The notes under the pieces: generated by a model
The model's input: the letters and a program-made list of their open reading frames with translations, nothing else
Database searches by the model: none
What the model was told of the DNA's origin: nothing
Translations under genes and position numbers: made by a program
NCBI GenBank assembly: GCA_963835525.1
Contig: CAWIFM010000007.1
Coordinates: 58,984 to 122,983 of the forward strand
DNA length: 64,000 nt
Source of the DNA: an uncultured Solirubrobacteraceae bacterium
Lineage (GTDB): Bacteria > Actinomycetota > Thermoleophilia > Solirubrobacterales > Solirubrobacteraceae
Reading direction: 5' to 3'
Part shown: one piece after another, positions 2,324 to 56,874 of the stretch
Layout of the letters: every line of letters begins with the position of its first letter
Numbering within the stretch: the first letter of the stretch is position 1

Positions 2324-2464
2324 ACGACAAAGTGCCCGCGCACCCTGCCGGCCCGCGGCTGCGGTCACCAGGTCGAGTCGTGGGTGCCCGGGCGCTGCAC
2401 GGGGGGAATCTCACGCACGGTGGGGAAGGAGAAGGCGTGAGCCGCGGCGGCGGGGCGGCGAGGT

Positions 2465-3361
2465 GTGATGGTGACGGTCACGGCGAAATCCTTAGGAGGC
2501 GCGACGTCCCCGGCGGCTGATGCGCACGGTGTGCGTGGCGGCCGCGTGGATGATGTGGATGTCGGTCGGGCTCATGGGAGGCATACTCCCGCCGCGGTCC
2601 CGGCCGGGATATCGCGCTGCCCAGCGTCTCGCGGTTCGGGTCGCCACTGGACGCGTACGGGAAGCCGCACCGCGCTGATCCTGCTCGTGGCGCTGGCCGG
2701 CTGCGGCGGCTCGTTGCAGCCGGTCGACCCGGGGCCGCGCCAGGCCGAGGCGGGTGCCGAGAAGACGCGCCCCGGGACCGCGCTGGCCGCGCTCCAGCGG
2801 CTTCCCGTCAAGGGCCGTGCGCCGAAGACGGGCTTCGACCGCGAGCAGTTCGGCGGCGACTGGGCGAGCGTCGACGGCTGCGACACGCGCGAGCGGATCC
2901 TCGAGCGCGACCTGCGCCGGATCGCGCGCGAGCCCGGCGGCGACTGCGAGGTGCAGAGCGGCGACCTCGCCGACCCGTACACGGCGAGCGCGATCCGCTT
3001 CGAGCGGGGCGGCGCCTCCGAGGTCGACATCGACCATGTCGTCGCACTCGGCGACGCGTGGCAGACCGGCGCCCAGCAGTGGAGCTTCGAGCGGCGCGTC
3101 CGGTTCGCCAACGACCCGCTCAACCTGCTCGCCGTCGACGCGTCGGCCAACCGCCAGAAGGGCGACAGCGACGCCGCGAGCTGGCTGCCGCCCAACAAGG
3201 CCTTCCGCTGTGCCTACGTCGCCCGCCAGATCGCGGTCAAGCGGCGCTACCGCGGCTGGGTCACGCTCGCCGAGCACGACGCGATGGAGCGCGTCCTCGC
3301 GCCGTGCCCGCGGACGCGGTTGCCCCTCAGGTCTGAGCGATCACCAGCACCATCGTCGTGA
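2465..3361 (+). CDS. DUF1524/HNH-type nuclease domain protein with lipoprotein-like signal (putative extracytoplasmic nuclease)
   Basis: Lipobox-like LILLVALAGCGG. The C-terminal region DIDHVVALGDAW...NLLAVDASANRQKGDSDAASWLPP is typical of the GmrSD-C/DUF1524 HNH fold. The start is uncertain: in-frame GTG/ATG occur at 2465, 2468, 2531, 2546 and 2555. Confidence 0.7.
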   Translation: MMVTVTAKSLGGATSPAADAHGVRGGRVDDVDVGRAHGRHTPAAVPAGISRCPASRGSGRHWTRTGSRTALILLVALAGCGGSLQPVDPGPRQAEAGAEKTRPGTALAALQRLPVKGRAPKTGFDREQFGGDWASVDGCDTRERILERDLRRIAREPGGDCEVQSGDLADPYTASAIRFERGGASEVDIDHVVALGDAWQTGAQQWSFERRVRFANDPLNLLAVDASANRQKGDSDAASWLPPNKAFRCAYVARQIAVKRRYRGWVTLAEHDAMERVLAPCPRTRLPLRSERSPAPSS

Positions 3362-10886: not shown

Positions 10887-11546
10887 GTGATGTCGCTTCC
10901 GCCCCCCAGCTCGGCGCAGCGCGAGCACGTGCTCGACCTCGAGGGCCCCCGCCGCCGGCGCGGGCAGCTCCGGCTGAGCGCGATGGGGGCGACGATCTCC
11001 TTCGACGGCGCGCTGCGGACCGACCTGCGGGTCCCGCTCGGCACGCTCCAGTTCGGGCTGGTGGATCGCGGGAGCGCCCGCTCCGGCGGCGTGAGCGGCC
11101 GGTTCCCGATCCTCAAGCGCCTGTCCGCCACCGCGGTGGTGCCGCGCGAGCAGGGCGTCGAGGGCTGGCTGTGGACCAGCCTCGGCGGCTCCGCGCTGAC
11201 CGTGCTGGGCGATCCCGAAGACGCCCCGAACGCCGCCGTGCTGTTCACCAAGCCGCTCGGCGACGACGCCGTGGCCTGCTTCGAGCCCGAGGCCGCGCAG
11301 GAGATCGCCGCGCGCTCGCCGCTCGGCGCGCCCGCCGTCAACGGCCTGCTGTTCCGCGTGACCGACACGAGCAAGGCGGAGACCGTCTTCCGCTCGTTCG
11401 GCCTGCTGCGCCCGCTCACCGACCGCGAGGTGCCGCCGACCCTGCGGCGCTCGCTCCCGACCGACAAGTCGGGCGATCCGGTGCTCGGCGGCGGCGGTGA
11501 CGACGCCCGCGCGTCGACGTCCGTGGCGCCTCCCGGCCTGGGATAA
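10887..11546 (+). CDS. hypothetical protein
   Basis: 219-aa ORF with GC3-rich codon usage. The competing antisense ORFs are Ser/Arg/Pro-rich, typical of artefacts. No family recognised. Confidence 0.45.
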   Translation: MMSLPPPSSAQREHVLDLEGPRRRRGQLRLSAMGATISFDGALRTDLRVPLGTLQFGLVDRGSARSGGVSGRFPILKRLSATAVVPREQGVEGWLWTSLGGSALTVLGDPEDAPNAAVLFTKPLGDDAVACFEPEAAQEIAARSPLGAPAVNGLLFRVTDTSKAETVFRSFGLLRPLTDREVPPTLRRSLPTDKSGDPVLGGGGDDARASTSVAPPGLG

Positions 11547-11576: not shown

Positions 11577-11804
11577 GTGTCGAGCGATGTCCCGTTGGGC
11601 ACCCCTAGTCGCTACCGTGAGGCGCCCGTGAGCGCCGAGCCTGAGCCCCACGACCCCCAGCGCTGCACCGCCTGCCGCGGCACCGGCCAGGTGATCTCCG
11701 GGCTGGGCGGCACGCCGCAGTCCGTCACGTGCCCGTGGTGCGGGGGCAGCGGCCGCTTCCAGACCGGGCACGACGCCCAGGCCGCAAAGCGCCCTAGCGA
11801 ATAA
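11577..11804 (+). CDS. small DnaJ-type zinc-finger protein (two CxxCxGxG motifs)
   Basis: 75 aa containing CTACRGTG and CPWCGGSG, i.e. two CxxCxGxG repeats as in the DnaJ zinc-binding domain. Codons are GC3-rich. Confidence 0.55.
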   Translation: MSSDVPLGTPSRYREAPVSAEPEPHDPQRCTACRGTGQVISGLGGTPQSVTCPWCGGSGRFQTGHDAQAAKRPSE

Positions 11805-12177
11805 CCAGCGTCCCGATCTGCTGGTCGGCCTCGACCAGCTCGATCGGGTACTCGCCGGGCGCGCCGGCCAGCAGCGAGAAGCGCGCGGGCGATTCCGGGT
11901 CGATCGTGTCCATGCGATCGAGCAGCATGATGCTGTCGCGCTCGGGACCTGAGATCGTCAGCTCGACGAGATCGCCCTCGTTCACGGTCACGTCGGCGTC
12001 CGACGTCGTGAGCTCCTTCTCGACCCTGGCCAGCGTGGGCGACCCCGCCGGGGCGGGCGTGGTGGAGGCCTCGCCGCGCTCCCGCTCCGTCGCGGGTTGG
12101 CGCGGAGCGACGCTCGCCGCGAGCGCCGCCATGCCCATCAAGACGGCGACGAGGATCAGGAAGCGCCGGCCCAACAT
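11794..12177 (-). CDS. secreted/membrane-anchored hypothetical protein (small beta-rich domain)
   Basis: 127 aa with N-terminal anchor MLGRRFLILVAVLMGMAALAASVA. Transcribed divergently from pilA. Confidence 0.5.
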   Translation of the reverse strand: MLGRRFLILVAVLMGMAALAASVAPRQPATERERGEASTTPAPAGSPTLARVEKELTTSDADVTVNEGDLVELTISGPERDSIMLLDRMDTIDPESPARFSLLAGAPGEYPIELVEADQQIGTLVIR

Positions 12178-12267
12178 GGACCCGAGGGTAGTCCGGTTGT
12201 CCAGTTAACAGGTAATGAGGGGTTAAGGACCCGGCCGCAGGTGCCGATACGGGTGGTGCCAGAACCA

Positions 12268-12352
12268 AGGTGTCAAAGGCAAATCGTCCGCGAGGGCGAG
12301 GCGCAAAGCCACGGAGCTCCTCGGATGGGAGCAAGCCGGGTTGCCACCGCCA
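12268..12352 (+). promoter_or_regulatory. candidate c-di-GMP-I (GEMM-I) riboswitch aptamer in the pilA leader
   Basis: GGCAAA (12278-83). GNRA hairpin CGUCC-GCGA-GGGCG (12285-98). AGGCGCAAAGCC (12299-310). Second hairpin GCUCC...GGAGC (12316-32). GGGUUGCC (12338-45), whose UUGCC pairs with GGCAA at 12278-82. The order and sequence match the conserved GEMM-I core as I recall it. Not verified with a covariance model. Confidence 0.65.
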
Positions 12353-12425
12353 GTGGTGGGACTGGGACCGAGGCCTGGCAGACGGAACTCAAAGGCCCAA
12401 CATCCCTTCAGGAGGGACCACCCAC

Positions 12426-12860
12426 ATGCTGCACAAGCTTCGCCAGCGCGCCCAGAGCGAGAAGGGCTTCACCCTGATCGAGCTCCTGGTCGTCATTCTG
12501 ATCATCGGCATCCTCGCCGCGATCGCTCTCCCCGCCTTCCTCGGCCAGCGCGCCCGTGCGCAGGACACCGAGGGCAAGACGGCTGTCCGTCAGGCTCAGA
12601 CCGCCATCGAGACCTTCTACACGGACAACCAGACCTACGTCGCCACCGAGGCGCAGCTCGAGGACATCGAGCAGTCGCTGGCCTCCGGCGCCGGCGCTTC
12701 GCTGGCCGTGACCGCCACGAGCCCCACGGCGTACACGCTGACGGTCACCTCCGTGACCGGCAACACGTTCTCGATCGCCAAGGCCGGGACCGGCACCGTG
12801 ACCCGCTCCTGCGTGCGTAACAACACGAAGGGCGGCTGCCCGGCCAGCCTCGCCTGGTAA
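12426..12860 (+). CDS. pilA: type IV pilin (prepilin-type N-terminal cleavage/methylation domain)
   Basis: MLHKLRQRAQSEKG|FTLIELLVVILIIGILAAIALPAF: class III signal peptide with Gly-1, Phe+1 and Glu+5. The SD GGAGGGA lies 8 nt upstream of ATG 12426. Confidence 0.9.
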   Translation: MLHKLRQRAQSEKGFTLIELLVVILIIGILAAIALPAFLGQRARAQDTEGKTAVRQAQTAIETFYTDNQTYVATEAQLEDIEQSLASGAGASLAVTATSPTAYTLTVTSVTGNTFSIAKAGTGTVTRSCVRNNTKGGCPASLAW

Positions 12861-12884
12861 GCAAGCCGTACCCAAGCCGTATCG

Positions 12885-12910
12885 CGAAGCGGGCCTCCGG
12901 GCCCGCTTCG
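12885..12910 (+). terminator. stem-loop terminator after pilA
   Basis: Perfect 11-bp GC-rich stem CGAAGCGGGCC / GGCCCGCUUCG with a 4-nt loop UCCG, followed by UCGUU. It lies 25 nt after the pilA stop. Confidence 0.65.
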
Positions 12911-12956
12911 TCGTTAACCCCTCAAGACGCCCCGGCCGGAGGCCGATATCACCATC

Positions 12957-14009
12957 GTGTTCAAGAAGCGTTCCTCCTCCCAGGCCGCGATCGTCGGCCT
13001 CGACCTCGATCCCGGCCACATCGCCGCCGCCGAGGTAACCGTCAACGGGTCGCTGTCGCTCAAGCGCGGCGCCGTCGCTCCCCTTCGTCCCGGCGTCCTG
13101 CGCGACGGTGAGGTCGCCGACGTCCCCGCTCTGGCGGAGGCGCTGAAGACCTTCTTCGCCGAGAACGGGCTCTCGAACCGGGTCCGGCTCGGCATCGCCA
13201 ACCAGCGGATCGTGGTCCGCACGCTGGACCTGCCGCCGCTGGAGGACGAGAAGTCGCTCGCCGCCGCGGTCAAGGTGCAGGCGCCCGACCACATCCCGAT
13301 GCCGATGGACGAGGCGATCCTCGACTGGCAGTCGCTCGGCACGGTCCTGTCGCCGTCCGGACAGCCGCGCACGCGCGTGGTCGTCGTCGCCGTCCGACGC
13401 GAGATGATCGACAAGCTGGTCGCCGCCTCGCGCGAGGCCGGCCTCAAGCTCGAGGGCATCGACCTGTCGGCGTTCGGCATGGTCCGCGCGCTCGCCGGCG
13501 GCCAGAAGGCCCAGGGCGCCGTGCTCTACATCAGCGTCGGCGGTCTCACCAACGTCGCCGTCGCCAACGCCAGCGGGTGCCTGTTCACGCGCGCCGCGGC
13601 CGGCGGCCTCGACGCGATGGTCCACACGCTCTCCGAGCGCCGCGGCCTCACGCTCGAGCACGCCCGCCAGTGGATGACCCACGTCGGGCTGCTCACGGAC
13701 CTCGAGGACGTCGACGGCGACCCCGACCTCGTGGGCGCCGCCCGCACGGTGCTGGAGGAGGGCGTGCACCAGCTCGCCGACACCGTCCGCAACTCGCTCA
13801 ACTTCTACCGCATGCAGGAGAGCGCCGAGCAGGTGGAGACCGGCGTGCTCACGGGTCCCGCCGTGGCCATCCCCGGCTTCGTCGAGCAGCTCTCCGAGCA
13901 GCTGCGCCTGCCGCTCGAGTCCGCCGTGGTCGCCTCGCAGGACGAGGACGCCGACCTCGGTCGCCTCACCGTGGCGGCCGGCCTCGCGGTCGAGAACGCC
14001 GTCGCCTGA
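12957..14009 (+). CDS. pilM: type IV pilus assembly protein PilM (actin-like ATPase fold)
   Basis: 350 aa. AIVGLDLDPGHIAAAEV N-terminus and overall PilM/FtsA-like pattern. Located in the pil locus. Confidence 0.9.
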   Translation: MFKKRSSSQAAIVGLDLDPGHIAAAEVTVNGSLSLKRGAVAPLRPGVLRDGEVADVPALAEALKTFFAENGLSNRVRLGIANQRIVVRTLDLPPLEDEKSLAAAVKVQAPDHIPMPMDEAILDWQSLGTVLSPSGQPRTRVVVVAVRREMIDKLVAASREAGLKLEGIDLSAFGMVRALAGGQKAQGAVLYISVGGLTNVAVANASGCLFTRAAAGGLDAMVHTLSERRGLTLEHARQWMTHVGLLTDLEDVDGDPDLVGAARTVLEEGVHQLADTVRNSLNFYRMQESAEQVETGVLTGPAVAIPGFVEQLSEQLRLPLESAVVASQDEDADLGRLTVAAGLAVENAVA

Positions 14010-14749
14010 TGCTCGCAGCGGTCGTCGGCGCGGTCTTCGGCTCGTTCCTGAACGTGGTGGCCTACCGGCTGCCCCGGGGCGAGTCGCTGTCGCGCCCGCG
14101 ATCGCGCTGCCCGCAGTGCCAGACCCAGATCAAGGCCTACGACAACGTCCCGGTCCTGTCCTGGCTGGCACTGCGCGGCCGCTGCCGCACCTGCCGCACG
14201 CCTATTTCCGCCCGCTATCCGCTAGTAGAGGCCGTGACCGGTCTCCTGTGCGCGCTGGTCGTCTATGACCAGGGACTCGACGAGGACGCGATCCTCGGCG
14301 TCGTCCTGGTGCTGCTGCTGGTCCCGATCACGCTGATCGACCTCGATCACCGGATCATCCCCAACAAGCTCACGCTGCTGGGGGCCGTGCTCGCCCCGGC
14401 GATCGTGGCCTTCACGGCGCCGGACGCCATCCCCGAGCACCTGATCGCGGGAGCCGCGGCGGGAGGCGCTTTCCTGCTGGTCGTCTTCGCATACCCGCGG
14501 GGGATGGGGATGGGCGACGTCAAGCTCGCCGCCGTCCTTGGCCTCTTCCTCGGCCGCGACGTCGTCCCCGCGCTCTTCCTCGCGTTCCTCGTCGGCACCC
14601 TCGTAGGGGCCGCGATCATCGCTCGCAAGGGCTCCGCGGAAGGCCGCAAGACGGCCGTCCCGTTCGGCCCGTTCCTCGCCTTCGGCGGGGTCGTCGCCCT
14701 CTTCGCGGGCGACGCGATGGTCGACTGGTACCTCACCACCTTCATCTAG
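14009..14749 (+). CDS. pilD: prepilin peptidase (A24 family)
   Basis: ATG at 14009 overlaps the pilM stop by 1 nt. Zn-finger pairs CPQC...CRTC, the catalytic Asp region ITLIDLDHRIIPN and the GMGMGDVKL motif are present. Confidence 0.9.
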   Translation: MLAAVVGAVFGSFLNVVAYRLPRGESLSRPRSRCPQCQTQIKAYDNVPVLSWLALRGRCRTCRTPISARYPLVEAVTGLLCALVVYDQGLDEDAILGVVLVLLLVPITLIDLDHRIIPNKLTLLGAVLAPAIVAFTAPDAIPEHLIAGAAAGGAFLLVVFAYPRGMGMGDVKLAAVLGLFLGRDVVPALFLAFLVGTLVGAAIIARKGSAEGRKTAVPFGPFLAFGGVVALFAGDAMVDWYLTTFI

Positions 14750-14810
14750 GGCGTCGACCCCACGAGCACGCCTCAAGGCGCGCTCATGGGGTGCCGATAA
14801 GCCAAGCGAG

Positions 14811-15674
14811 ATGAAGGCCATCAACCTGCTCCCCCCCGACCTTCGCGGCACGCCCAAGAGCGCTGCCCCGAAGGCCGCCATCGCCCCCGCAGAGCCGGGC
14901 GGCATCGGCGCCTTCGTGGTGCTCGGCGCGCTCGCCGCATGCGTTGTCGCGCTCGCCGCGTACGTGCTCACGACCAACACGGTCAAGGACCGTGCGGCGC
15001 AGCTGGAGGCGGTCACCGCCCAGGCCGATGCCACCCGCTCAGCCGTCAGCCAGCTCAAGCCGTACGCCGACTTCCAGGCGATGGCCGAGACCCGCATCCA
15101 GACCGTCAAGGACCTCGCGTCCTCGCGCTTCGACTGGGAGCAGGCGCTGCGCGACATCTCGCGCGCCGTCCCCGCCGAGGTCACGCTGCGCGAGCTCAAC
15201 GGCACGATCTCCAGCGACACGGGAGGCAGCGGCCTCCGCAGCGCGATCGCCGCTCCGGCGATCGAGCTCAAGGGCTGCAGCTCCGGCCAGACGCAGGTCG
15301 CCACGCTGATGTCGCGCCTGCGCAGCGTCGACGGCGTCTCCCGCGTCAGCCTCAACAAGTCGCTCAAGCCCGACAAGTCGCAGATCTCCGGGGCCGCCTC
15401 GCCGATCGCGGGCGTCGCCCAGGCCGACGGCTGCAAGGGCAAGCGCCCGCCGAACTTCGAGATCGTCATGTTCTTCGAGGGCGCCGAGGTCCCCGCCACG
15501 GTCGAGGACATCACCGTCCAGCCGGGCGCCGGCAGCGGCACCGCGCCGAGCGCCGAGGGCACGACCGCCTCGACCGAGGGGGAGGCCGGTGGCGTCACCA
15601 CGCCGCCGAGCGTGCCCGAGGGTGACGACTCCGCCACGCCCGCCTCGACGCCCGAGGGAGGGGCAGCCCAATGA
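14811..15674 (+). CDS. pilN: PilN-like pilus assembly protein (long, low-complexity C-terminus)
   Basis: MKAINLLPPDL start typical of PilN, one TM segment, then a coiled coil. The C-terminal ~90 aa are Pro/Thr/Gly/Ala-rich. Confidence 0.75.
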   Translation: MKAINLLPPDLRGTPKSAAPKAAIAPAEPGGIGAFVVLGALAACVVALAAYVLTTNTVKDRAAQLEAVTAQADATRSAVSQLKPYADFQAMAETRIQTVKDLASSRFDWEQALRDISRAVPAEVTLRELNGTISSDTGGSGLRSAIAAPAIELKGCSSGQTQVATLMSRLRSVDGVSRVSLNKSLKPDKSQISGAASPIAGVAQADGCKGKRPPNFEIVMFFEGAEVPATVEDITVQPGAGSGTAPSAEGTTASTEGEAGGVTTPPSVPEGDDSATPASTPEGGAAQ

Positions 15675-16426
15675 CCCGCTCGAACAAGATCCTGCTGTCG
15701 GTGGTAGCGCTCGGCGCCGCCATCGCCGCCTTCTACTTCTTCGTCCTCTCGCCCAAGCGTGAGGAGGTCGCCAAGCTCGACACCGGCATCACGGCCCAGA
15801 AGGCCGAGATCGAGCAGGCGCGGCTGACGCTCGCCGGCTACGAGCAGGCCAAGAAGACCTACAAGAAGAACTACGCGACGCTCGCCCGCCTCGGCAAGGC
15901 CGTGCCGGCCGACGACGACGTGCGCTCGCTGCTGGTGCAGCTGGAGTCCACCGCCAATCGCAGCGGCGTCACCTTCGAGAAGATCGAGTTGGCGAACAAC
16001 CTCGGCGGTGAGGCTGCGGCGACGACCGGCGCGGCGACGCCCGCGGCGGGCCAGCTCGCCTCGGCCCCGGGCACCGTCCCGGTCGCCGGCGGCGTCCTGT
16101 CCGCGATGCCGTTCAGCTTCAGCTTCACCGGCTCGTACTTCGACCTGACGGCGTTCTTCGCCCGGCTCGAGCACTACGTGAGCCTCAACAACGCCAAGCT
16201 CGACTCGACCGGTCGCCTGATGCGCCTCGAGAGCATCTCGATCACGCCGTCGGCCCTCGGGTTCCCGGACATGATGGCCGAGATCAACGCCGCGACCTAC
16301 CTCGTCCCGCCCGTCCAGGGCGTCGACGCGGGCGCGCCGTCGAGCGACGCCCAGAACGTCACGGGCGAGCCCGGGACGACCCCGCCCACCACTACCGCGT
16401 CCGCCAATTCCGGAGCCTCCCGATGA
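15671..16426 (+). CDS. pilO: PilO-like pilus assembly protein
   Basis: ATGA overlap with pilN. N-terminal TM (ILLSVVALGAAIAAFYFFVL), coiled coil, then a ferredoxin-like core. Low-complexity tail. Confidence 0.75.
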   Translation: MTRSNKILLSVVALGAAIAAFYFFVLSPKREEVAKLDTGITAQKAEIEQARLTLAGYEQAKKTYKKNYATLARLGKAVPADDDVRSLLVQLESTANRSGVTFEKIELANNLGGEAAATTGAATPAAGQLASAPGTVPVAGGVLSAMPFSFSFTGSYFDLTAFFARLEHYVSLNNAKLDSTGRLMRLESISITPSALGFPDMMAEINAATYLVPPVQGVDAGAPSSDAQNVTGEPGTTPPTTTASANSGASR

Positions 16427-17199
16427 ACGCCGTCACCACCATCTGGCGCCAGCTCGTGCGCAACAAGCTCTGGCCCGTCGCCGTGCTGCTGCTGGCCGCG
16501 CTCGTCGCCGTCCCCGTGCTGCTGGCCCGTGAGCCCGCCGTGCCGGAGACGATCGCTCCGGTGGCCGTGAACACGGAGGCCGACGACAGCATCGCCGAGC
16601 CGATCGTGGCCAAGATCACCCCGGAGGACCGCAACCGCCGCCGCCGCGTGCTCGGCGTCCGCAAGGACCCGTTCCGCCCGGCCCCGGTCAAGGAGCCCAA
16701 GGTCGAGCAGCCGGAGACCCCCGACGCGACCACGATCGGCGACCCGCCCCCCGGTGACACCGGCAGCGGCGGCGGCGGCGAGCCCGCCGAGGCTCCCGTG
16801 TTCTACGAGCCGGGGACGATCATCGTGCGCTTCGGCGACGCGACGAATTCCCAGCTCACGCGCTTCGCGATCCCGAAGCTCGGACCGGTGCCCGACGACG
16901 AGTTCCCGCTGCTCGTGTACATGGGCCTGACCAAGAACGGCAAGAAGGCCAAGTTCCTGGTCGACGCCGCCCTCGAGGTCGACGGCGACGGCACCTGCAA
17001 GCCGCACCCGTCGAACTGCGAGGTCATCGAGCTCGCGGTCGGCGAGACCGAGTTCCTCGACGTCATCAACCCGGAGACCTCCGACGAGGAGGAGACCACC
17101 GAGGAAGAGACGGCCGAGGAGACCGAGCCGGAGGTCCTCGCGACCTTCCAGCTCGACCTCGTCGACATCAAGCGCGCCGGCGACTCAGACGTCAAGTAG
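16423..17199 (+). CDS. PilP-position membrane-anchored protein (KDPF motif, acidic C-terminal tail)
   Basis: ATGA overlap with pilO. N-terminal TM, RKDPFRP motif resembling the (R/K)DPF motif of PilP-family proteins, and tail DEEETTEEETAEETEPE. Function is inferred from position only. Confidence 0.55.
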   Translation: MNAVTTIWRQLVRNKLWPVAVLLLAALVAVPVLLAREPAVPETIAPVAVNTEADDSIAEPIVAKITPEDRNRRRRVLGVRKDPFRPAPVKEPKVEQPETPDATTIGDPPPGDTGSGGGGEPAEAPVFYEPGTIIVRFGDATNSQLTRFAIPKLGPVPDDEFPLLVYMGLTKNGKKAKFLVDAALEVDGDGTCKPHPSNCEVIELAVGETEFLDVINPETSDEEETTEEETAEETEPEVLATFQLDLVDIKRAGDSDVK

Positions 17200-17205
17200 G
17201 GGTAT

Positions 17206-18426
17206 GTGTCACCCGCCGCGGCTCCTGGTGAGCCGCGGCGGATAGCCTTCACCGGCGTGCCGCTGCGCGTCGTCACAGCCGGGGAGTCCCACGGGCCCGG
17301 GCTGACCTGCATCGTCGAGGGCCTGCCCGCGGGCCTCGAGCTCGACCTGTCCGCGATCGACCGCGACATGGCGCGCCGCCAGCTCGGCCACGGCCGCGGT
17401 GGGCGCATGAAGATCGAGCGCGACAGCGCCGAGATCACCTCCGGGGTCCGCCACGGCCGCACGCTCGGCGGCCCGATCGCCGTGCGGGTCGCCAACCGCG
17501 ACTACGCCAACTGGGAGGAGCGGATGAACCCGTGGCCGGTCGAGGCCGAGGTGCCCGAGGTGCACCTCCCGCGCCCCGGTCACGCCGACCTCGCGGGCGT
17601 GCAGAAGTTCGGCTTCACCGACGTGCGCAACGTGCTCGAGCGCGCCAGCGCCCGCGAGACGGCCGCGCGCGTGGCCGGCGGGGCGCTGGCCAAGGGCTTC
17701 CTGGCCGCGCTCGGCGTGCAGGTGTTCTCGAACGTCACGCAGATCGGCTCGGTCCGGGCGACTGAGTCCGGCGGCCTTGCGCCGGCCGACTTCGCCGACG
17801 TCGACGCATCGCCCGTGCGCTGCCTCGACGCCGAGGCATCGAAGGCGATGGTCGAGGAGATCAACGTGCTGCGCAAGGCCAACGAGTCGCTCGGCGGCGT
17901 CTTCGAGGTGCGCGCCTTCGGCGTCGTTCCAGGCCTCGGCTCGCACGTGAGCTGGGAGGAGCGGCTGGACGGCCGGATCGGCATGGCCATGCTCTCGATC
18001 CAGGCCATCAAGGGCTGCGGGATCGGCGACGGGTTCGACCTCGCGGGCCGGCCCGGCTCCGCCGCGCACGACGAGATCTTCTACTCCGACGAGCGCGGCT
18101 ACTACCGCGAGACCAACCGCTCGGGCGGCATCGAGGGCGGCATGACGACCGGCGAGCCGCTGATCGTGCGCTGCGCGATGAAGCCGCTGCCGACGCTCAC
18201 CAAGCCGCTGCGGTCGGTCGACATCGCCACGCGCGAGCCGGCGCAGGCGCTGCGCGAGCGGACCGACTCGTGCACGGTTCCGGCGGCGGGCGTGGTGGGG
18301 GAGGCGATGCTGGCCATCGTGCTGGCCGACGCCTACCGCGCGAAGTTCGGAGGCGACCACATCGACGACGTCCGCGCCGCCGTGGAGGCCTACGAGCGGC
18401 GCATCGGATGGAAGCCTCGAACCTAG
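17206..18426 (+). CDS. aroC: chorismate synthase
   Basis: LRVVTAGESHGPGL..., GRSSARETA-like region (ERASARETAARVA) and GGISNG-like GGIEGGMTTGEP. The start is probably the in-frame GTG at 17257. Confidence 0.95.
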   Translation: MSPAAAPGEPRRIAFTGVPLRVVTAGESHGPGLTCIVEGLPAGLELDLSAIDRDMARRQLGHGRGGRMKIERDSAEITSGVRHGRTLGGPIAVRVANRDYANWEERMNPWPVEAEVPEVHLPRPGHADLAGVQKFGFTDVRNVLERASARETAARVAGGALAKGFLAALGVQVFSNVTQIGSVRATESGGLAPADFADVDASPVRCLDAEASKAMVEEINVLRKANESLGGVFEVRAFGVVPGLGSHVSWEERLDGRIGMAMLSIQAIKGCGIGDGFDLAGRPGSAAHDEIFYSDERGYYRETNRSGGIEGGMTTGEPLIVRCAMKPLPTLTKPLRSVDIATREPAQALRERTDSCTVPAAGVVGEAMLAIVLADAYRAKFGGDHIDDVRAAVEAYERRIGWKPRT

Positions 18427-19928
18427 TCTTCATCGGCTTCATGGGCGCGGGCAAGACGTCGGCGGCGCGTGCCGCCGCGGGCGTGCTCGGCGTGCGGGCC
18501 GTCGACGCCGACCACGAGATCGAGCGGCGGCTCGGGACGACGATCGAGGAGTACTTCTCCACGCACGGCGAGGCGGCCTTCCGCGCGGTCGAGGAGGAGG
18601 TCGTGTGCGGCCTGCTCGAGCGGACCGTCGCGCCGGTGGTCTCGCTCGGCGGCGGCGCCGTGACCTCCGAGCGCGTGCGCGCGCTGCTCGCGCAGCACAC
18701 GGTGGTGCTGCTGGACGTCGACATCGAGACGGCCTGGCGGCGGGCCGGCAACAAGCGCCGCCCGCTGGCCCGCGACCGCGAGGGTTTCGTGGCGCTGCAC
18801 GCCCAGCGCCGGCCGCTCTACGACTCGCTCGCCGACGCCGTGCTGCTCGATTCTTCGCGCGACGAGGTCCGCAAGGCCGTGCACGCCCTGCGCTCGCTCT
18901 CGCGCGCGCCCGCGGGCACCAAGCTCGTGTGGGCGGCGGCCGCCTCGGGCAGCTACCCCGTCTACCTCGGCGAGGGCCTGGTCGGCAGCGCCTTCTGGCC
19001 CGTCCCCGGCCGCCGCTTCGTCATCACCGACTCCGCGGTATCCGCCCACTATCGGATCGCCGGGGCTGACGCCGAGTTGCGGATACCGGAGGGCGAGGAG
19101 CACAAGACGCTCGCCACCGTCGAGCGGCTGCTGAGCGCGCTGGCGGCCGCGGGCATGGACCACGACGACCACGTCGTGGCTCTCGGCGGCGGCGTGGTCG
19201 GTGACGTCGCCGGGTTCTGCGCCGCCGTCTACCAGCGCGGGGTCAAGGTCGTGCAGGTGCCCACCACGCTCGTGGCACAGGTCGACTCGGCCTACGGCGG
19301 CAAGACCGGGGTCGACCTGCCGGAGGGCAAGAACTACGCCGGCGCCTACCACCAGCCGGCCGCGGTGATGGTCGATCCGTCGACCATGGCCACGCTGCCG
19401 CAGGCCGAGCTGGCGGCCGGCTGGGCCGAGGTGATCAAGACGGCGCTGATCGCGGGCGGCCCGCTGTGGGAGCGAGTCCGCGAGGGGGCCCCGCTCGACC
19501 GCGACCTCGTGCTCGCCTGCGCGCGCACCAAGCTCGCCGTGGTGGCCGGCGACGAGCGCGACGCCGGCCGCCGCCAGGTCCTCAACCTCGGCCACACGGT
19601 CGGGCACGCGATCGAGACCGTCACCGGCTACCGGCGCTACCGCCACGGCGAGGCGGTCGGGCTCGGCCTGCTGGCCGCCCTCGAGCTCTCGGGCCAGGCC
19701 GCGCTGCGCGCGGAGGTCGCGGCGCTGCTCGACGCGCGCGGGCTGCCGACGTCGCTCGACCGCGCCGTCGAGCCCGGCGCCGTGGTCGCGGCCACGCGGC
19801 GCGACAAGAAGCGCCGCGGCGGGCGCGTGGGGTTCGTGCTCGTCGAGTCGCCGGGCGACGTGCGCCCCGGCCGGCCGGTCGAGGAAGGCGAGCTGCGCCG
19901 CGCCGTGGCAGAGTTGCGCGCGCCATGA
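18408..19928 (+). CDS. aroK-aroB: bifunctional shikimate kinase / 3-dehydroquinate synthase (single fused ORF)
   Basis: N-terminal P-loop FIGFMGAGKTS plus an SK core of ~170 aa, continuous in frame with DHQS motifs (GGGVVGDVAGFCAA, VQVPTTLVAQVDSAYGGKTGVD, LNLGHTVGHAIE). ATG at 18408 overlaps the aroC 3' end. Confidence 0.9.
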   Translation: MEASNLVFIGFMGAGKTSAARAAAGVLGVRAVDADHEIERRLGTTIEEYFSTHGEAAFRAVEEEVVCGLLERTVAPVVSLGGGAVTSERVRALLAQHTVVLLDVDIETAWRRAGNKRRPLARDREGFVALHAQRRPLYDSLADAVLLDSSRDEVRKAVHALRSLSRAPAGTKLVWAAAASGSYPVYLGEGLVGSAFWPVPGRRFVITDSAVSAHYRIAGADAELRIPEGEEHKTLATVERLLSALAAAGMDHDDHVVALGGGVVGDVAGFCAAVYQRGVKVVQVPTTLVAQVDSAYGGKTGVDLPEGKNYAGAYHQPAAVMVDPSTMATLPQAELAAGWAEVIKTALIAGGPLWERVREGAPLDRDLVLACARTKLAVVAGDERDAGRRQVLNLGHTVGHAIETVTGYRRYRHGEAVGLGLLAALELSGQAALRAEVAALLDARGLPTSLDRAVEPGAVVAATRRDKKRRGGRVGFVLVESPGDVRPGRPVEEGELRRAVAELRAP

Positions 19929-20359
19929 GGAACCGGGTGGCCGTGCTCCACGGCGTCAACCTCGCCGCGCTCGACCGCCGGCCGGCCGAGCACTACGGCG
20001 GGCTCACGTTCAGCCGGCTCGAGCGCCGCATCGAGGCCTTCGCGCGCGAGCTGGGCCTGGAGGCGCGCTTCTTCCACTCCAACCACGAGGGGGAGTACGT
20101 GGAGGAGATCCACAAGGCGTCCGACTACGCCGACGGCCTGCTCCTGAATCCGGGAGCGTGGACCCACTACGCATGGTCGCTGCGCGACGCCGTCGAGGTC
20201 TCCGGGCTGCCGGCCGTCGAGGTCCATCTTTCGGATGTCATGAGCCGCGAGGAGTTCCGCCGCGTGTCCGTGCTCGAGGGCGTCTGCGTCGCCAAGGTCA
20301 GCGGCAAGGGCGTCGACGGCTACCGCGAAGCGCTGGCCGCGTTGAAGGACGCCCTGTGA
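19925..20359 (+). CDS. aroQ: type II 3-dehydroquinate dehydratase
   Basis: VLHGVNL...FFHSNHEGEYVEEIH...LLNPGAWTHY...EVHLSDV, the canonical AroQ motifs. ATGA overlap with the upstream gene. Confidence 0.95.
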   Translation: MRNRVAVLHGVNLAALDRRPAEHYGGLTFSRLERRIEAFARELGLEARFFHSNHEGEYVEEIHKASDYADGLLLNPGAWTHYAWSLRDAVEVSGLPAVEVHLSDVMSREEFRRVSVLEGVCVAKVSGKGVDGYREALAALKDAL

Positions 20360-21411
20360 GCCGCGCCGACCGCGTCGCCGAGGCGCTCGAGGTCGACGCG
20401 CTGCTGATCACGGACCTCGTCAACCTGCGCTACGTCACCGGGTTCACGGGCTCGAGCGGCATGGCGGTCGTCGGGCGCGACCTCCGTCGCTTCATCACCG
20501 ACTTCCGCTACGTGGAGCAGGCCGCCGGCGAGGTCGAGGGCTTCGACCGCGAGCAGGCGCCCCAGGTCTTCGACGGCGCGCTGGCGGAGGGCTGGCCGGA
20601 CGGGTCCCTGCGGCTCGGGTTCGACGATCAGAACGTGTCCGTGCGCCGCCACGCGCGCCTGCGCGAGCTGCTGCCCGAGCGGGTGGAGCTCGTGCCGTCC
20701 GGCGGCGTCGTGGAGGCGCTTCGGGCGGTCAAGGACGCCGAGGAGATCTCGCGCATCGCCGCCGCCGCCCGGCTCGCCGACGAGGTGTACGGGATGCTGC
20801 GCGAGCAGGGGCTGGTGGGGCGGACGGAGCGTGACGTGGCGTTCGCGCTGGAGACCGAGATGCGCCGGCGCGGCGCCGAGCCGAGCTTCGAGTCGATCGT
20901 CGCCTCGGCCGAGCGCGGCGCGCTGCCGCACGCCGTGCCGGCGGACGTGCCGATCCCGCGCGGGACGCTGGTCACGCTCGACATCGGGGCGCGGCTCGGC
21001 GGCTACTGCTCGGACTGCACGCGCACGTGGGCGACCGGCGAGCTTCCGGACGACCTGGCGGAGGCGTACGAGCTCGTCCAGCGCGCCCAGGCAAAGGCGC
21101 TGGCCGCCGTGCGGCCGGGTCCCGAGGGGCGCGAGGTCGACGCCGTGGCGCGCGACATCATCGAGGCGGCCGGGCACGGCGAGCACTTCGGCCACGGGCT
21201 CGGGCACGGGGTCGGCCTCGAGGTCCACGAGGGCCCGCGGCTGTCGCGCACCGGCGAGGCGCCGCTCGTCGCCGGCAACGTCGTGACGGTCGAGCCCGGC
21301 GTCTACCTGCCGAGCCGCGGCGGCGTCCGGATCGAGGATCTCGTGGTGGTCACCGAGGACGGCCATACCGTCCTCTCCCTGACCACGAAGGACCTCATAA
21401 CCGTCGACTAG
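20356..21411 (+). CDS. M24 family Xaa-Pro aminopeptidase/dipeptidase
   Basis: Creatinase-like N-domain plus M24 metal ligands (DIGARLGGYCSDCTRT, HGLGHGVGLEVHE, TVEPGVY, IEDLV). GTGA overlap with aroQ. Confidence 0.9.
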   Translation: MSRADRVAEALEVDALLITDLVNLRYVTGFTGSSGMAVVGRDLRRFITDFRYVEQAAGEVEGFDREQAPQVFDGALAEGWPDGSLRLGFDDQNVSVRRHARLRELLPERVELVPSGGVVEALRAVKDAEEISRIAAAARLADEVYGMLREQGLVGRTERDVAFALETEMRRRGAEPSFESIVASAERGALPHAVPADVPIPRGTLVTLDIGARLGGYCSDCTRTWATGELPDDLAEAYELVQRAQAKALAAVRPGPEGREVDAVARDIIEAAGHGEHFGHGLGHGVGLEVHEGPRLSRTGEAPLVAGNVVTVEPGVYLPSRGGVRIEDLVVVTEDGHTVLSLTTKDLITVD

Positions 21412-21461
21412 GGCCCCGAACCCACTCAAGCCCTCGGCGCGGTAAGCCGATACCGGGGGCG

Positions 21462-23009
21462 ATGGAACTCCGAGCCCGCATTCGCCCAACGCTGCGCCAC
21501 GCCGGCCTTATGGCCGCGGCCGCCGCACTGCTGGTGCCCGTCACGGGCACGGCCACCGCCACCGCAAAAAGCGCCCCCGTCGTCAAGAGCGTCGCGCCGA
21601 AGAAGGTCTTCGTCGGCGAGACGATGAAGATCCGCGGACGCCACTTCCGCCGCGGCGTCAACAAGAACATGGTCGCCTTCAAGCGCAAGGGCGCGAAGGC
21701 CGTCCTGGTGCCGGCGGGGCGCGGAACCACCAAGCTTCTGATGGTCGAGCTGCCCAAGCGGCTCGAGAAGATCCTGCTCGTCCAGAACGGCACGCCGGTG
21801 GCGACGCCGCTGCAGGTCCGCGTGATGTCCTCGCGGTTCGGCAAGCGCTACACCAGCCGTTCCAAGTCGCCGCTCGTCGGCCCTGAGAAGCCGCCGGCGC
21901 CGCCGAAGCCCAAGGCCGCCAACCCGAACGGCGACTGTGACGGCGACGGCCAGATCAACCGCGTCGACACCGACGACGACAACGACCTGCTGACCGACGA
22001 CGTCGAGAAGGGCTACGACCTCGACGGCTGCAAGGCCGACACCGACGGCGACAAGGTCGAGGACGGCTACGAGTACCAGTCCGCTCGCGACCTCAACGAC
22101 GACGAGCACCAGACGCCCAATGACTACATCCCGTATCCGGAGAAGCGTCCGTACCCGAACGCGCTCGACAAGACGGACTCCGGTACCGACCACGACGGCG
22201 ACGACCTGACGCTGCTCGAGGAGTACCGGCTCTGGAAGGTCACGCTCGCGAACGGCGCGCCGCGCACGCTCGCCGGGCTCGGCTACTCCGCCGGTGAGCA
22301 GTACTCGGTCAACGTGCGCCAGGGTGGCAACGGCAACCGCGTCCCGACGCTCATGGCTGCCGGCTACGACAAGCAGATCGCCTTCCTGGGCTGGGCCGCC
22401 TCGACGGGCTACGCCACGATCGGCCTGTCGCCGGTCCCGGGCTTCTTCGACGACCCGGACACCGACGACATCGCCGAGTACTGGGAGCCGCGCGAGTTCC
22501 GCGACGTCCGCGACATGAACCGCGACAACGTCCTCCAGTCCTACGAGGAGACGTACTACGACTTCGACCAGACCGGCCGCCTCAGCGACAGCGAGCGCGA
22601 CGAGGACGCCGACGGCCTCAGCAACTGGGCCGAGACGCGCGGCTGCATGAACCCGAAGTACTGGGAGGGCGTCTACGACAAGGAGACGCCGTACTACCTC
22701 AGCTATAGCGGCACGCAGCTCGACGACGCCGACACCGACGGTGACGGCATCCGCGACGGCGCCGACGACCAGGACCACGACGACGTGCCGAACCTGATGG
22801 AGTGCTCGCGCGTGCTCGCCTCCGGCGTGGCCGCCGACCCCGTCGACGAGGAGCAGGGCGACCCGCACCGCGTGTGGAAGGGCTTCGTGAACCCCTTCAA
22901 CCCGTGCCTGCCGCACGTCAAGTCGCGTACCTGCAAGGTCATCGTCCCCGTGGACAACGCGTGGGCGCCGTTCAACGCCGAGGACGAGTACTACCTCATC
23001 CGGTTCTAG
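21462..23009 (+). CDS. secreted IPT/TIG-domain protein with thrombospondin type-3-like Ca-binding repeats
   Basis: Signal peptide, then an IPT-like segment (VKSVAPKKVFVGETMKIRGRHF). Multiple DxDxDGxxDxxD-type repeats follow (DCDGDGQINRVDTDDDND, DTDGDKVEDG, DEDADGLSNW, DTDGDGIRDGADDQDHDD). Confidence 0.8.
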   Translation: MELRARIRPTLRHAGLMAAAAALLVPVTGTATATAKSAPVVKSVAPKKVFVGETMKIRGRHFRRGVNKNMVAFKRKGAKAVLVPAGRGTTKLLMVELPKRLEKILLVQNGTPVATPLQVRVMSSRFGKRYTSRSKSPLVGPEKPPAPPKPKAANPNGDCDGDGQINRVDTDDDNDLLTDDVEKGYDLDGCKADTDGDKVEDGYEYQSARDLNDDEHQTPNDYIPYPEKRPYPNALDKTDSGTDHDGDDLTLLEEYRLWKVTLANGAPRTLAGLGYSAGEQYSVNVRQGGNGNRVPTLMAAGYDKQIAFLGWAASTGYATIGLSPVPGFFDDPDTDDIAEYWEPREFRDVRDMNRDNVLQSYEETYYDFDQTGRLSDSERDEDADGLSNWAETRGCMNPKYWEGVYDKETPYYLSYSGTQLDDADTDGDGIRDGADDQDHDDVPNLMECSRVLASGVAADPVDEEQGDPHRVWKGFVNPFNPCLPHVKSRTCKVIVPVDNAWAPFNAEDEYYLIRF

Positions 23010-39100: not shown

Positions 39101-39685
39101 CTAACCTCCCACCAGCGCCAGCGCGAACCCGTCGTAGCCCTTCGCGCCGACGGTCTGGATCGCCGTCGCGCGCACGTCGGGCTCGGCGGCCAGCGCGTCG
39201 AAGAAGGCCCGCACGCCCTGCACCGAAGGGTCGTCGCTGTCGTCGGCGACGGCGCCGTCGCGGATCACGTTGTCGGCCACGATCAGCGTGCCGGGCCGGG
39301 AGAGCCGCAGCGCTTCTCGCAGGTACTCGGCGTTGCTCCGCTTGTCGGCGTCGATGAAGATCAGGTCGAACGGGCCGTCGAGCGTGGGAAGCGTCTCCAG
39401 CGCAGGGCCGATGATCACCTCGGCGCGATCGCCGAGCGCCGCGCGGGCACGGGCGGCCCGATCGGGGTCGATCTCGAGCGAGACCACGCGGGCGCCGGAT
39501 CGCGCGAGCCAGAGCGTGCTGTAGCCCTCGAGCGTGCCGATCTCGAGGATGGTGCGCGCGCCGATCGCCCGCGCCAGCAGCTCGAGCAGCGCGCCCTGCG
39601 GAGGGGAGACCGCGGCGTCGTGAGCGGGGCCGGGATCGTCCCGGATCAGCCTGTCGGCGATGTAGCGGTCGACCTCGCTCCACAT
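39101..39685 (-). CDS. class I SAM-dependent O-methyltransferase (Methyltransf_3 / caffeoyl-CoA OMT-like)
   Basis: ILEIGTLEGYSTLWLA (motif I), FDLIFIDADKRSNAEYL and GTLIVADNV. ATG at 39685 (MWSEVDRYI) is preferred over the track start at 39760. Confidence 0.85.
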   Translation of the reverse strand: MWSEVDRYIADRLIRDDPGPAHDAAVSPPQGALLELLARAIGARTILEIGTLEGYSTLWLARSGARVVSLEIDPDRAARARAALGDRAEVIIGPALETLPTLDGPFDLIFIDADKRSNAEYLREALRLSRPGTLIVADNVIRDGAVADDSDDPSVQGVRAFFDALAAEPDVRATAIQTVGAKGYDGFALALVGG

Positions 39686-39744
39686 GGGCGGAGCATTGCA
39701 GCGCGCAGGAGCGCACGGCCGCCACGGCGAAGTCCTCATGTCCG

Positions 39745-50525: not shown

Positions 50526-50724
50526 CGGACGCCCGGCAAGCCGGTGTGCGGGTCCTTCGGGCCTACGACCTCGACGATCACGTCGCCGTAGATCGTCCAG
50601 CCCGGAGGGTGCGGAGCCGGCGGGCGCGAGGTGGAGCGGTTCATGAGCGGTACGACCCACAACCCGCCGCAGAGGTTGGGAATTTGCAGCGACTCCGTCC
50701 GGCACACGAACTAGTGTTCGGGTC

Positions 50725-51455
50725 ATGGAGTCACCCTGGCTGGCATCGCAACTGGAGGCGGGCCGCTCGATCGAGTCGATCGCCCGCGATACCGGCAAGA
50801 GCGTCTCGACGGTCGCGTACTGGGTCAACAAGCACGGCCTGTCGTCCCAGCACGCATCGAAGCACGCGGCGCGCGGCGGGATCGACCGTGTCGAGCTCGA
50901 GGCGATGGTCGGACTCGGGATGCCGATCCGCGCGATGGCCGACCAACTCGGCGTCGGCTACACCACCGTGCGGCACTGGCTGAAGCACCACGGTCTCACC
51001 ACGCCACGCGCGCGTCGACTCGCCGAGACGGCGGAGGCGCGGGCGACCGGCGCCGACACGGCGAGCGGCTCCTGTCCGCGGCACGGACTCGTGACGTTCG
51101 TCCGTCGCGGCCCCGACGGGTTTCGCTGTCAGCGCTGCCGGACCGAAGCCGTGGACCGGCGGCGGCGCAAGATCAAGCGCATCCTGGTCGCCGAGGCGGG
51201 CGGCGCTTGCGTCGAGTGCGGCTACTCACGGACGCTGGCTGCGCTGCACTTCCACCACCTCGATCCGGCGCAGAAGTCCTTCGGTCTCGGCGAGCGCGGC
51301 GTGACGCTCTCCTTGGAGGCCGCCCGAGCCGAGGCCGCCAAGTGCGTGCTGCTCTGCGCCACGTGTCACGCCGAGGTCGAACTGGGCGTCAAGCGGCTAC
51401 CCTGTCGGCCGATGACCCGTGGAGATGCCGCGGTGGTCCGCCGGTCATCGTGCCT

Positions 51456-51465
<10 letters not shown>
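50725..51465 (+). CDS. HNH endonuclease-domain protein with two tandem HTH-like repeats
   Basis: Repeats SIESIARDTGKSVSTVAYWVNKHGLSS and PIRAMADQLGVGYTTVRHWLKHHGLTT. Cys clusters CPRHG...CQRC and CVECG. HNH core LHFHHLDP...LLCATCHAEVE. The last 10 nt overlap tRNA-Asn. Confidence 0.75.
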
Positions 51466-51528
<63 letters not shown>

Positions 51529-56811: not shown

Positions 56812-56874
56812 CGCGTTGTCAAGCGTACTGCCAGATAGAACGCTGGTGTGAGCGTTTGATTGCGGTGTTGCGCG

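Follow-up and report, generated by a model that had tools for sequence, protein, structure and literature searches.

What do the pil genes of a monoderm, high-GC bacterium build, how are they controlled, and what occupies the position that PilP holds in other machines of this kind? These questions are raised by a stretch of 64,000 nucleotides (nt) from an uncultured Solirubrobacteraceae bacterium (contig CAWIFM010000007.1, positions 58,984 to 122,983), referred to below as the window. Six co-oriented genes on its + strand, namely pilA, pilM, pilD, pilN, pilO and an uncharacterised gene here called X, probably encode a filament subunit together with the membrane assembly sub-complex for a type IVa pilus or pilus-like filament, with X as a fourth subunit and with expression under sigma-28/WhiG and cyclic di-GMP (c-di-GMP) control. 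The overlapping start codon of X, its invariable adjacency to pilO and a motif of the PilNO-binding type indicate that X very likely works with PilN and PilO. The proposal that it descends from PilP is far more tentative.

Gene content of the locus

All six open reading frames (ORFs) are intact. Their coordinates, lengths and overlaps, as well as the 61-nt gap between pilD and pilN, had been given correctly in a first-pass annotation of this DNA.

12426..12860, + strand: pilA, type IVa major prepilin, 144 residues
12957..14009, + strand: pilM, actin-like cytoplasmic assembly protein, 350 residues, GTG start
14009..14749, + strand: pilD, prepilin peptidase, 246 residues, overlapping pilM by 1 nt (TGATG)
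14811..15674, + strand: pilN, 287 residues, with one transmembrane segment, a core domain and a low-complexity tail of about 55 residues
15671..16426, + strand: pilO, 251 residues, with one transmembrane segment, a coiled coil, a core domain and a low-complexity tail, overlapping pilN by 4 nt
16423..17199, + strand: X, uncharacterised bitopic membrane protein, 258 residues, overlapping pilO by 4 nt, in the PilP slot

The prepilin is recognised by N_methyl (E 4e-9) and TIGR02532 (E 4.8e-9). Its 14-residue leader is of class III (SEKG before the cleavage site, FTLIE after it), with MLHKLRQRAQSEKG preceding FTLIELLV and Glu at position +5, and the protein carries a C-terminal Cys pair. No other prepilin motif occurs within the window. 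PilM matches PilM_2/PF11104 (E 1.3e-25) and scores 128 bits with TIGR01175, for which the cutoff is 133. PilD matches both A24_N_bact/PF06750 (E 1.5e-37) and Peptidase_A24/PF01478 (E 6e-17), and PilO matches PF04350 (E 3.9e-8, 34 bits, cutoff 22). PilN is borderline, at 22.6 bits against a PF05137 gathering score of 22.8, but its INLLP motif, topology and gene position agree with the assignment. Profile searches thus uphold the names given earlier to PilM, PilO and the peptidase, leave PilN at the threshold and return no PilP.

The N-terminus of PilN reads MKAINLLP, and its Escherichia coli counterpart HofN starts MNPPINFLPW. An INLLP-type N-terminus is the PilM-binding motif of diderm systems, as seen in the Thermus PilM-PilN structure. 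The C-terminal tails of PilN and PilO are rich in Pro, Thr and Gly, as had been pointed out in the first reading of the sequence. The start codon of aroC, at 17206, lies 6 nt past X. Consequently, no secretin gene follows X, which had also been reported, and the lack of pilQ at the locus is expected for a monoderm organism.

Host lineage and conservation of the arrangement

The host is a soil member of the Solirubrobacteraceae, a family placed by the NCBI taxonomy in Thermoleophilia, Actinomycetota, kingdom Bacillati. Its nearest genomes are Solirubrobacteraceae metagenome-assembled genomes (MAGs), and the GC content is 69-76%. Cultured Solirubrobacteraceae stain Gram-positive. Together with the gene identities, this placement bears out the initial description of a type IVa-like module in a monoderm, high-GC lineage.

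A genome scan with one genome per species yielded 44 related loci, all from Thermoleophilia or from MAGs labelled just Actinomycetota or Actinomycetes. The scan used patterns drawn from close X homologues, which biases its hits toward Solirubrobacterales. The loci (cited by L numbers) include those of Solirubrobacteraceae, Solirubrobacter phytolaccae, Ca. Solirubrobacter pratensis, Conexibacter and Thermoleophilaceae. In the best Solirubrobacteraceae locus, X is 90% identical to its counterpart in the window, and PilM, PilD and AroC are 97-98% identical. According to tblastn searches with the window proteins, the backbone is fixed across the 44 loci: pilA is followed by nothing or by about 3.7 kb, and then by pilM/pilD, pilN, pilO, X and a block of housekeeping genes.

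17206..21411, + strand: aroC, an aroK-aroB fusion, aroQ and pepP, directly 3' of X

This order is kept across families down to about 28-30% identity, and the 4-nt overlap of pilO and X is retained. The aroK-aroB fusion (18456-19928, + strand), in which shikimate kinase and 3-dehydroquinate synthase share one ORF, is also kept in related loci. The genes from aroC to pepP are possibly co-transcribed with the pil genes.

A comparable arrangement is found in E. coli K-12 (L045, 3514000-3526000), where hofM, hofN, hofO, hofP and hofQ are followed by aroK and aroB; the corresponding part of the window is 12957-19928. This identifies the interval from pilO to the aro genes as the PilP/PilQ slot. Judged from gene order, the pilMNO(P)(Q)-aro synteny common to E. 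coli and this actinobacterium suggests a very old linkage of pilus and shikimate genes.

The insertion of pilD within pilMNO, which the first-pass annotation regarded as unusual, is real as a gene order. However, it is a family-level rearrangement. Only Solirubrobacteraceae and Solirubrobacter have the order pilM-pilD-pilN, and pilD-pilM-pilN-pilO-X is found in Conexibacter, Thermoleophilaceae and several other MAGs (L021, L033, L034, L036, L038, L040-L044, L046). It thus represents a local swap and not a design principle. In addition, pilM-pilD and pilN-pilO-X appear to be separate promoter-defined units, as described below.

Where the 3.7-kb insert is present, it contains genes for three large proteins whose N-termini resemble those of prepilins (G before the cleavage site, then FTLIEV and similar sequences) and which are candidate minor pilins. 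Examples are L005:2749-6340 and L040:2514-6147, and many relatives have equivalents between pilA and pilM. These genes are absent between 12861 and 12956 in the window and from the same interval in its closest relatives.

As a separate observation, pilA is only 64% identical to that of the closest genome (L001:5997-6443), as against 97-98% for the flanking pilM, pilD and aroC, and some relatives carry two or three tandem pilA copies (L006, L018, L029). The low identity and the tandem copies point to pilin diversification.

The protein in the PilP position

X belongs to a large family, with 937 relatives at E <= 0.001 among the 90%-identity clusters and 1330 among those at 50% identity. Every one is either without a name or annotated "hypothetical", and the few named entries come from Solirubrobacteraceae MAGs. 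In the related loci X always lies between pilO and aroC, and a distant homologue of 483 residues occupies the same slot.

The layout of X was derived from its sequence and from an alignment of 124 sequences reaching down to about 28% identity. The N-terminus carries R9, R13 and K15, followed by a hydrophobic transmembrane segment of about 18 residues (17-34), which predicts a signal anchor with the N-terminus inside and the C-terminus outside. No lipobox was found in X, and no Cys precedes residue 192. The only strongly conserved part of the linker is RRRRVLGxRKDPFxP, located in the region LGVRKDPFRPAP. The RKDPFRP motif that the first-pass annotation had singled out lies there at residues 80-86. 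F84 is one of two invariant residues in the alignment, and P83 and G78 are conserved in at least 90% of the sequences. A spacer rich in Gly, Pro and Ser leads to a domain of about 130 residues (about 125-258), with near-invariant G168, A176, F178, G188-D189-G190, C192, P194, C199, G207, F211 and L244. The acidic run DEEETTEEETAEETEPE, at residues 221-237 or thereabouts, varies in length among homologues to the point of being nearly absent, and is followed by 21 conserved residues, VLATFQLDLVDIKRAGDSDVK, which form the last beta-strand of the predicted domain. Consequently, it is an internal loop and not the acidic tail that had been described.

A usable AlphaFold2 (AF2) model was obtained only with the 124-sequence alignment; 24 close sequences gave a poor one, with a predicted local distance difference test (pLDDT) score of 60. 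In the usable model the mean pLDDT is 84 and exceeds 94 at residues 125-220, approximately, and 240-258. The C-terminal domain is modelled as all-beta with nine strands and with lower confidence at the acidic loop. Within the linker, which is otherwise poorly ordered, the pLDDT rises locally to 86 at residues 81-90. Since the model places two Cys in adjacent strands of an extracytoplasmic domain, a C192-C199 disulfide is likely.

Is X then a PilP? The claim of a protein in the PilP position holds for the slot and for the motif. The identity of X as a demonstrable PilP was rejected, because sequence, profile, hhalign and Foldseek tests were all negative. Neither PF04351 nor the NCBIfam models matched X, and PF04351 matched none of 123 homologues either, that is, 0 of 124 family members. 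No PilP was found when all PDB sequences were searched with X profiles (hmmsearch). The hhalign comparisons of X with PilP alignments (3, 20 and 27 sequences; Pseudomonas, Neisseria and Myxococcota), run in local, greedy and global modes and with a C-terminal-only sub-alignment, gave probabilities of 0.2-0.4%. Foldseek with the full-length X model against the PDB gave a best E of 0.16 and TM-scores below 0.3, and no PilP structure (2ivw, 2lc4, 2y4x, 4av2 and 3jc8 were sought) was among the 50 best matches listed.

A resemblance to PilP and HofP nevertheless exists at the level of architecture. Like them, X is encoded right after pilO and before aro genes, the same slot that hofP and hofQ occupy in E. 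coli. The layout is collinear as well: an N-terminal membrane anchor leads to a disordered linker with (R/K)(D/S)PF(K/R/Q)xP and then to an all-beta C-terminal domain facing outward. The motif reads VRKDPFRPAP in X, GKRDPFRSP in Myxococcus xanthus PilP, GMRDPFKPP in E. coli HofP and LRSPFQPP in Pseudomonas aeruginosa PilP, so that RDPF[KR]xP recurs in HofP, M. xanthus PilP and X. HofP starts MRVKRWLLAGIALCLLTGMRDPFKPP, and M. xanthus PilP has NPVGKRDPFRSP. The unstructured N-terminal part of P. aeruginosa PilP, residues 18-76, binds PilN-PilO, while its C-terminal beta domain binds PilQ (PMC5805733). LRSPFQPP lies inside that region. The best local hhalign alignments, though insignificant, fall on a 10-column motif and on the first beta-hairpin of the PilP domain.

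These features allow for the possibility, itself doubtful, that X is a true but highly diverged PilP orthologue, kept after the loss of pilQ, in which the lipid anchor was replaced by a transmembrane helix and the C-terminal domain was remodelled. The alternative to descent is that X arrived at the motif by convergence. Apart from the negative searches, which include a Foldseek query whose domain is modelled at pLDDT above 94, the differences from PilP and HofP tell against it. X has a transmembrane signal anchor and not a lipobox, no secretin is encoded nearby, and its C-terminal domain exceeds the PilP beta domain by about 50 residues, with two extra conserved Cys and a variable acidic loop.

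Predicted sigma-28/WhiG-type promoters

Two regulatory features of the locus were missing from the first-pass annotation: sigma-28/WhiG-type promoters and a c-di-GMP-I riboswitch. The heptamer GCCGATA occurs only five times in 64 kb, and in four of these cases YAAG precedes it at a distance of exactly 15 nt. YAAG-N15-GCCGATA is thus present four times in the window, as compared with 0 in 100 shuffles.

12224..12250, + strand: sigma-28/WhiG-type promoter of pilA, TAAG-N15-GCCGATAC, 175 nt upstream of pilA
12923..12949, + strand: sigma-28/WhiG-type promoter of pilM-pilD, CAAG-N15-GCCGATAT, with the -10 element ending 7 nt before GTG
14774..14800, + strand: sigma-28/WhiG-type promoter of pilN-pilO-X, CAAG-N15-GCCGATAA, in the 61-nt gap, ending 10 nt before ATG
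21427..21453, + strand: fourth sigma-28/WhiG-type promoter, CAAG-N15-GCCGATAC, ending 8 nt before the ATG of a 515-residue protein

Relative to the sigma-28/WhiG consensus TAAA-N15-GCCGATAA, the pilA and pilN sites have two mismatches, and the pilM and 21427 sites have three (CAAG, and T or C as the last letter). Across the 44 related loci, hardly any copies of the motif lie outside these four places, and their distances are nearly constant. The matches number 35 upstream of pilA copies (about 170-190 nt away), 23 upstream of pilM (19 with identical spacing) and 33 upstream of pilN (for the most part 8-11 nt from the start codon), overlapping TAAA and AAAG matches being counted twice. The fourth promoter, downstream of pepP, is kept in most relatives.

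The predicted promoter between pilD and pilN would account for the 61-nt gap. On the basis of these motifs, the locus would comprise three promoter-defined units: pilA, pilM-pilD and pilN-pilO-X, the last possibly continuing into aroC. The short, fixed spacing from the -10 element to the start codon suggests that the pilM-pilD and pilN-pilO-X mRNAs are leaderless or nearly so. The sigma factor acting on these promoters would be WhiG/sigma-28. In the Rubrobacter pil cluster, three promoters of the same consensus, validated by start-site mapping, were assigned to the c-di-GMP-controlled RsiG-WhiG switch, and WhiG together with single-motif RsiG homologues was reported for Thermoleophilum, Patulibacter and Conexibacter (PMC8325347). 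According to a 2026 preprint, WhiG is predicted to control type IV pili in five further actinobacterial families, Thermoleophilia not among them (PMC12871210).

The protein behind the fourth promoter (21462-23009, + strand, 515 residues) has a signal peptide and Asp-rich repeats of the DxDxDG type; it has no match in Pfam or the PDB. It could be a member of the same regulon and act, for instance, as an adhesin.

Scans for sigma-70 promoters and intrinsic terminators returned nothing relevant. The first-pass annotation had placed a strong terminator after pilA, which was not borne out.

12884..12911, + strand: hairpin after pilA, a 12-bp GC stem without a U-tract, followed by GUCGUUAACC; possible terminator

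This hairpin was not called by the intrinsic-terminator scan, and the folding of the 105-nt region is only modestly stronger than that of shuffled sequences (z = -1.9).

The c-di-GMP-I riboswitch in the pilA leader

The 175-nt leader between the pilA promoter and the start codon contains a full-length riboswitch aptamer and, immediately before the gene, a second hairpin.

12268..12348, + strand: c-di-GMP-I riboswitch aptamer, RF01051 (61.1 bits, gathering score 35, E 1.7e-9)
12403..12417, + strand: conserved anti-Shine-Dalgarno/Shine-Dalgarno hairpin UCCCUU-CAG-GAGGGA, immediately 5' of the pilA ATG; candidate expression platform at the level of translation

The aptamer is accordingly assigned to the c-di-GMP-I class, GGC subtype, with c-di-GMP as the predicted ligand. 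As in the known c-di-GMP-I (GEMM-I) family, the match is full-length, the hairpins covary and the consensus strands are present. It differs from the RF01051 pattern in having GGC and not GAC before CGCAAAG, for which reason the variant model RF03167 also scores (56.5 bits versus 59); relatives carry either version. An aptamer was found upstream of pilA in 7/7 relatives tested, one of which is a member of the Thermoleophilaceae. In a 17-copy alignment, 7 of the 21 base pairs show compensatory changes and both hairpins have covariation support. GGCAAA, CGCAAAG and AGCCGGG, which match the Rfam consensus, occur in all or nearly all 17 copies.

The hairpin at 12403..12417 is part of the minimum free energy fold and would occlude the Shine-Dalgarno sequence. 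The leader 3' of the aptamer is conserved, and ATCCCTTCAGGAGGGAC is kept in the leaders of most relatives. Since the leader ends in a Shine-Dalgarno hairpin and no terminator was seen, the expression platform is likely translational, which is a further difference from RF01051 riboswitches with a terminator. Elsewhere in the window, an HD_5 (HD-GYP-like) domain protein (56059-56874, - strand) is a possible c-di-GMP phosphodiesterase, perhaps relevant to pil control.

Motor, platform and secretin genes and the nature of the product

Pfam scans of the large ORFs of the window found housekeeping and unrelated genes only and no PilB, PilC, PilT or secretin. A six-frame search for the Walker A motif of GspE/PilB/PilT was negative in the window and in every related locus, and tblastn with E. 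coli HofB, HofC and HofQ gave nothing at E < 0.01 in the window and 45 loci of about 20 kb. The earlier statement that PilB, PilC and PilT are not in the window is therefore correct. These results imply that the motor and platform genes are encoded more than 10 kb from the pilMNO module throughout the lineage.

The absence of these genes from the window and from the 20-kb neighbourhoods could also be taken as a sign that the locus is a decaying, motorless remnant that makes nothing, or that X is an unrelated membrane protein merely lying between pilO and aroC. The same reading could appeal to the minor-pilin genes of many relatives, which are missing here between pilA and pilM, and to the high rates of amino acid change in pilN, pilO and X discussed below. 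It is nevertheless highly improbable. Six intact ORFs and their order have survived across families to the divergence given above, promoters and riboswitch are kept at fixed spacing, and the pilO/X overlap is retained. In X itself, certain residues are invariant and the fold is predicted with confidence. The few fragmented tblastn matches are most simply read as MAG assembly errors. The intact ORFs across deep divergence, the conserved regulatory elements and the conserved pilO/X overlap argue instead for a complete pilus machine, which would actually produce a filament.

What kind of filament this might be is a separate question. A short competence or DNA-uptake pseudopilus of the E. coli Hof type, or a secretion pseudopilus, would be consistent with the second-best Pfam match of PilA, ComP_DUS (E 1e-7), with the matches of GspG and ComGC models to the PilA N-terminus, with the annotation of the syntenic E. 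coli hofMNOPQ as DNA-utilisation genes, and with the lack of PilT nearby. However, the pilin models match mainly on the shared N-terminal helix. The hypervariability of pilA and its duplication in some relatives are typical of exposed major pilins, and the combination of PilM/N/O with sigma-28 and c-di-GMP control resembles the pili of Rubrobacter and Actinoplanes. A pseudopilus in place of a motility or adhesion pilus is consequently unlikely.

Proposed machine

In the favoured reading, that of a type IVa assembly sub-complex with X as its fourth subunit, PilD would cut the 14-residue leader of PilA, and PilM would bind the cytoplasmic INLLP N-terminus of PilN. PilN and PilO would form a ring of bitopic heterodimers outside the membrane. 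X would join this ring as a fourth subunit, apparently coupled in translation to pilO through the 4-nt overlap with the pilO stop codon. Held by its N-terminal transmembrane helix, it would bind PilN-PilO through the invariant RKDPF linker motif, given that PilP and HofP carry the same motif in their N-terminal, PilNO-binding part. Its lineage-specific, probably disulfide-bonded beta domain would be presented to the cell wall, where a PilP domain would dock on a secretin. Extension and retraction ATPases and the platform protein would be supplied from elsewhere in the genome, and pilus output would be tied to c-di-GMP at two levels, the sigma switch and the riboswitch of the pilA leader.

Several observations weigh against this reading. 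No similarity of X to PilP or to any solved structure was detected in sequence, profile or fold, the RKDPF match extends over just 5-7 residues and was spotted after the fact, and the membrane anchor of X is a transmembrane helix without a lipobox. No WhiG or RsiG gene was seen within the window, and no PilB, PilC or PilT gene was found in its 64 kb or within 10 kb of the locus in 45 relatives. Finally, whole-gene ratios of nonsynonymous to synonymous substitution rates (dN/dS) of pilN, pilO and X are high, at 0.5-0.96 (against L001, L003 and L005), but they are not readable as relaxed selection, since a GC content at third codon positions of about 95% depresses dS and the proteins contain long disordered segments.

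A more specific version of the proposal, that X is a remodelled monoderm PilP in which, once the secretin had been lost, the Thermoleophilia placed a PilNO-binding RDPF module on a new transmembrane anchor and joined it to a new extracytoplasmic beta domain for guiding or anchoring the pilus across the thick wall, is speculative, though it would have clear consequences. If it is true, the core task of PilP would be to stabilise PilN-PilO and not to link them to the secretin, and monoderm type IVa machines may have a fourth, cell-wall-facing ring component. In combination with a pilin gene doubly gated by c-di-GMP through sigma factor and riboswitch, this would amount to a distinct actinobacterial flavour of the machine. 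The C-terminal domain is new and has no secretin to bind; that it acts on the cell wall side or on the filament as it emerges is the obvious guess, but no more than a guess.

Neighbouring genes and other features of the window

Three genes upstream of pilA are kept in most related loci. The gene at 11794-12177 (- strand), divergent from pilA, encodes a small secreted or membrane protein without a Pfam match. A 75-residue CxxC zinc-ribbon protein (11577-11804, + strand) has weak Pfam matches below the curated cutoffs, and a 219-residue protein (10887-11546, + strand) has no Pfam match. Other features of the window lie further away. They include a GmrSD_C (restriction endonuclease C-terminal) domain protein at 2441-3361 (+ strand), possibly a defence gene, and a XerD-like tyrosine recombinase at 39415-40680 (+ strand). 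A tRNA gene (51456-51528) lies beside a protein with several helix-turn-helix matches, of the transposase type and of other families, in the region 50647-51528 (+ strand).

Comparison with known systems

Type IVa (PilMNO-type) systems have already been detected bioinformatically in monoderm Actinobacteria (Denise 2019, PMC6668835; PMC6916266). Actinobacterial pili have been studied in Rubrobacter (PMC8325347) and in Actinoplanes, and predictions extend to four more families (PMC12871210). The view that such machineries are poorly described in Actinobacteria was therefore overstated; they are predicted there and partly studied (PMC6668835, PMC8325347, PMC12871210). The basic picture of type IVa pili in Actinomycetota is unchanged by the present locus. 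The supplements of Denise 2019 (PMC6668835) contain no mention of Conexibacter, Solirubrobacter, Rubrobacter or any name beginning with Thermoleophil, and the Thermoleophilia pil loci are not covered in PMC8325347 or PMC12871210. The searchable literature yielded nothing on pili of Solirubrobacterales. Within that literature, the X family as a conserved component of the PilP slot across Thermoleophilia, the sigma-28/WhiG-type pil promoters in this class, and a pilin gene with both a sigma-28/WhiG-type promoter and a c-di-GMP-I riboswitch are undescribed.

Monoderm systems have been described as having no protein in the PilP position, which was deemed logical in the absence of a secretin (PMC6916266), and the question of what takes the place of the outer components at the cell wall has been raised in reviews of monoderm type IV pili. 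The X family provides a concrete candidate for this missing cell-wall-side component. It also offers a means of telling apart two roles of PilP, that of stabilising PilNO and that of linking to the secretin. The stacking of two c-di-GMP inputs on one pilin gene likewise represents a testable regulatory design.

The monoderm pili of Firmicutes (Streptococcus sanguinis, Clostridium perfringens, Clostridioides difficile) resemble the present system in combining PilA, PilD, PilM, PilN and PilO without a secretin and in having PilN and PilO longer than the diderm proteins. In C. difficile, a c-di-GMP riboswitch also controls a pilin gene; that riboswitch is of class II, whereas the one described here is of class I. 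The Firmicutes systems differ further in that they are without a PilP-position protein (PMC6916266) and their genes cluster with pilB, pilC and pilT, and the PilN described here has the diderm-type INLLP motif.

Rubrobacter radiotolerans and R. xylanophilus (PMC8325347) offer another comparison. They also represent an early-branching class, and several promoters of the TAAA-N15-GCCGATAA type divide their cluster into about three units. A (RsiG)2-(c-di-GMP)2-WhiG switch operates there, and c-di-GMP-linked control is predicted here from sequence. The present locus differs from that of Rubrobacter in that its -35 elements are mostly CAAG or TAAG, two of its units look leaderless, its ATPase genes lie outside the cluster, and its pilA gene carries an additional riboswitch.

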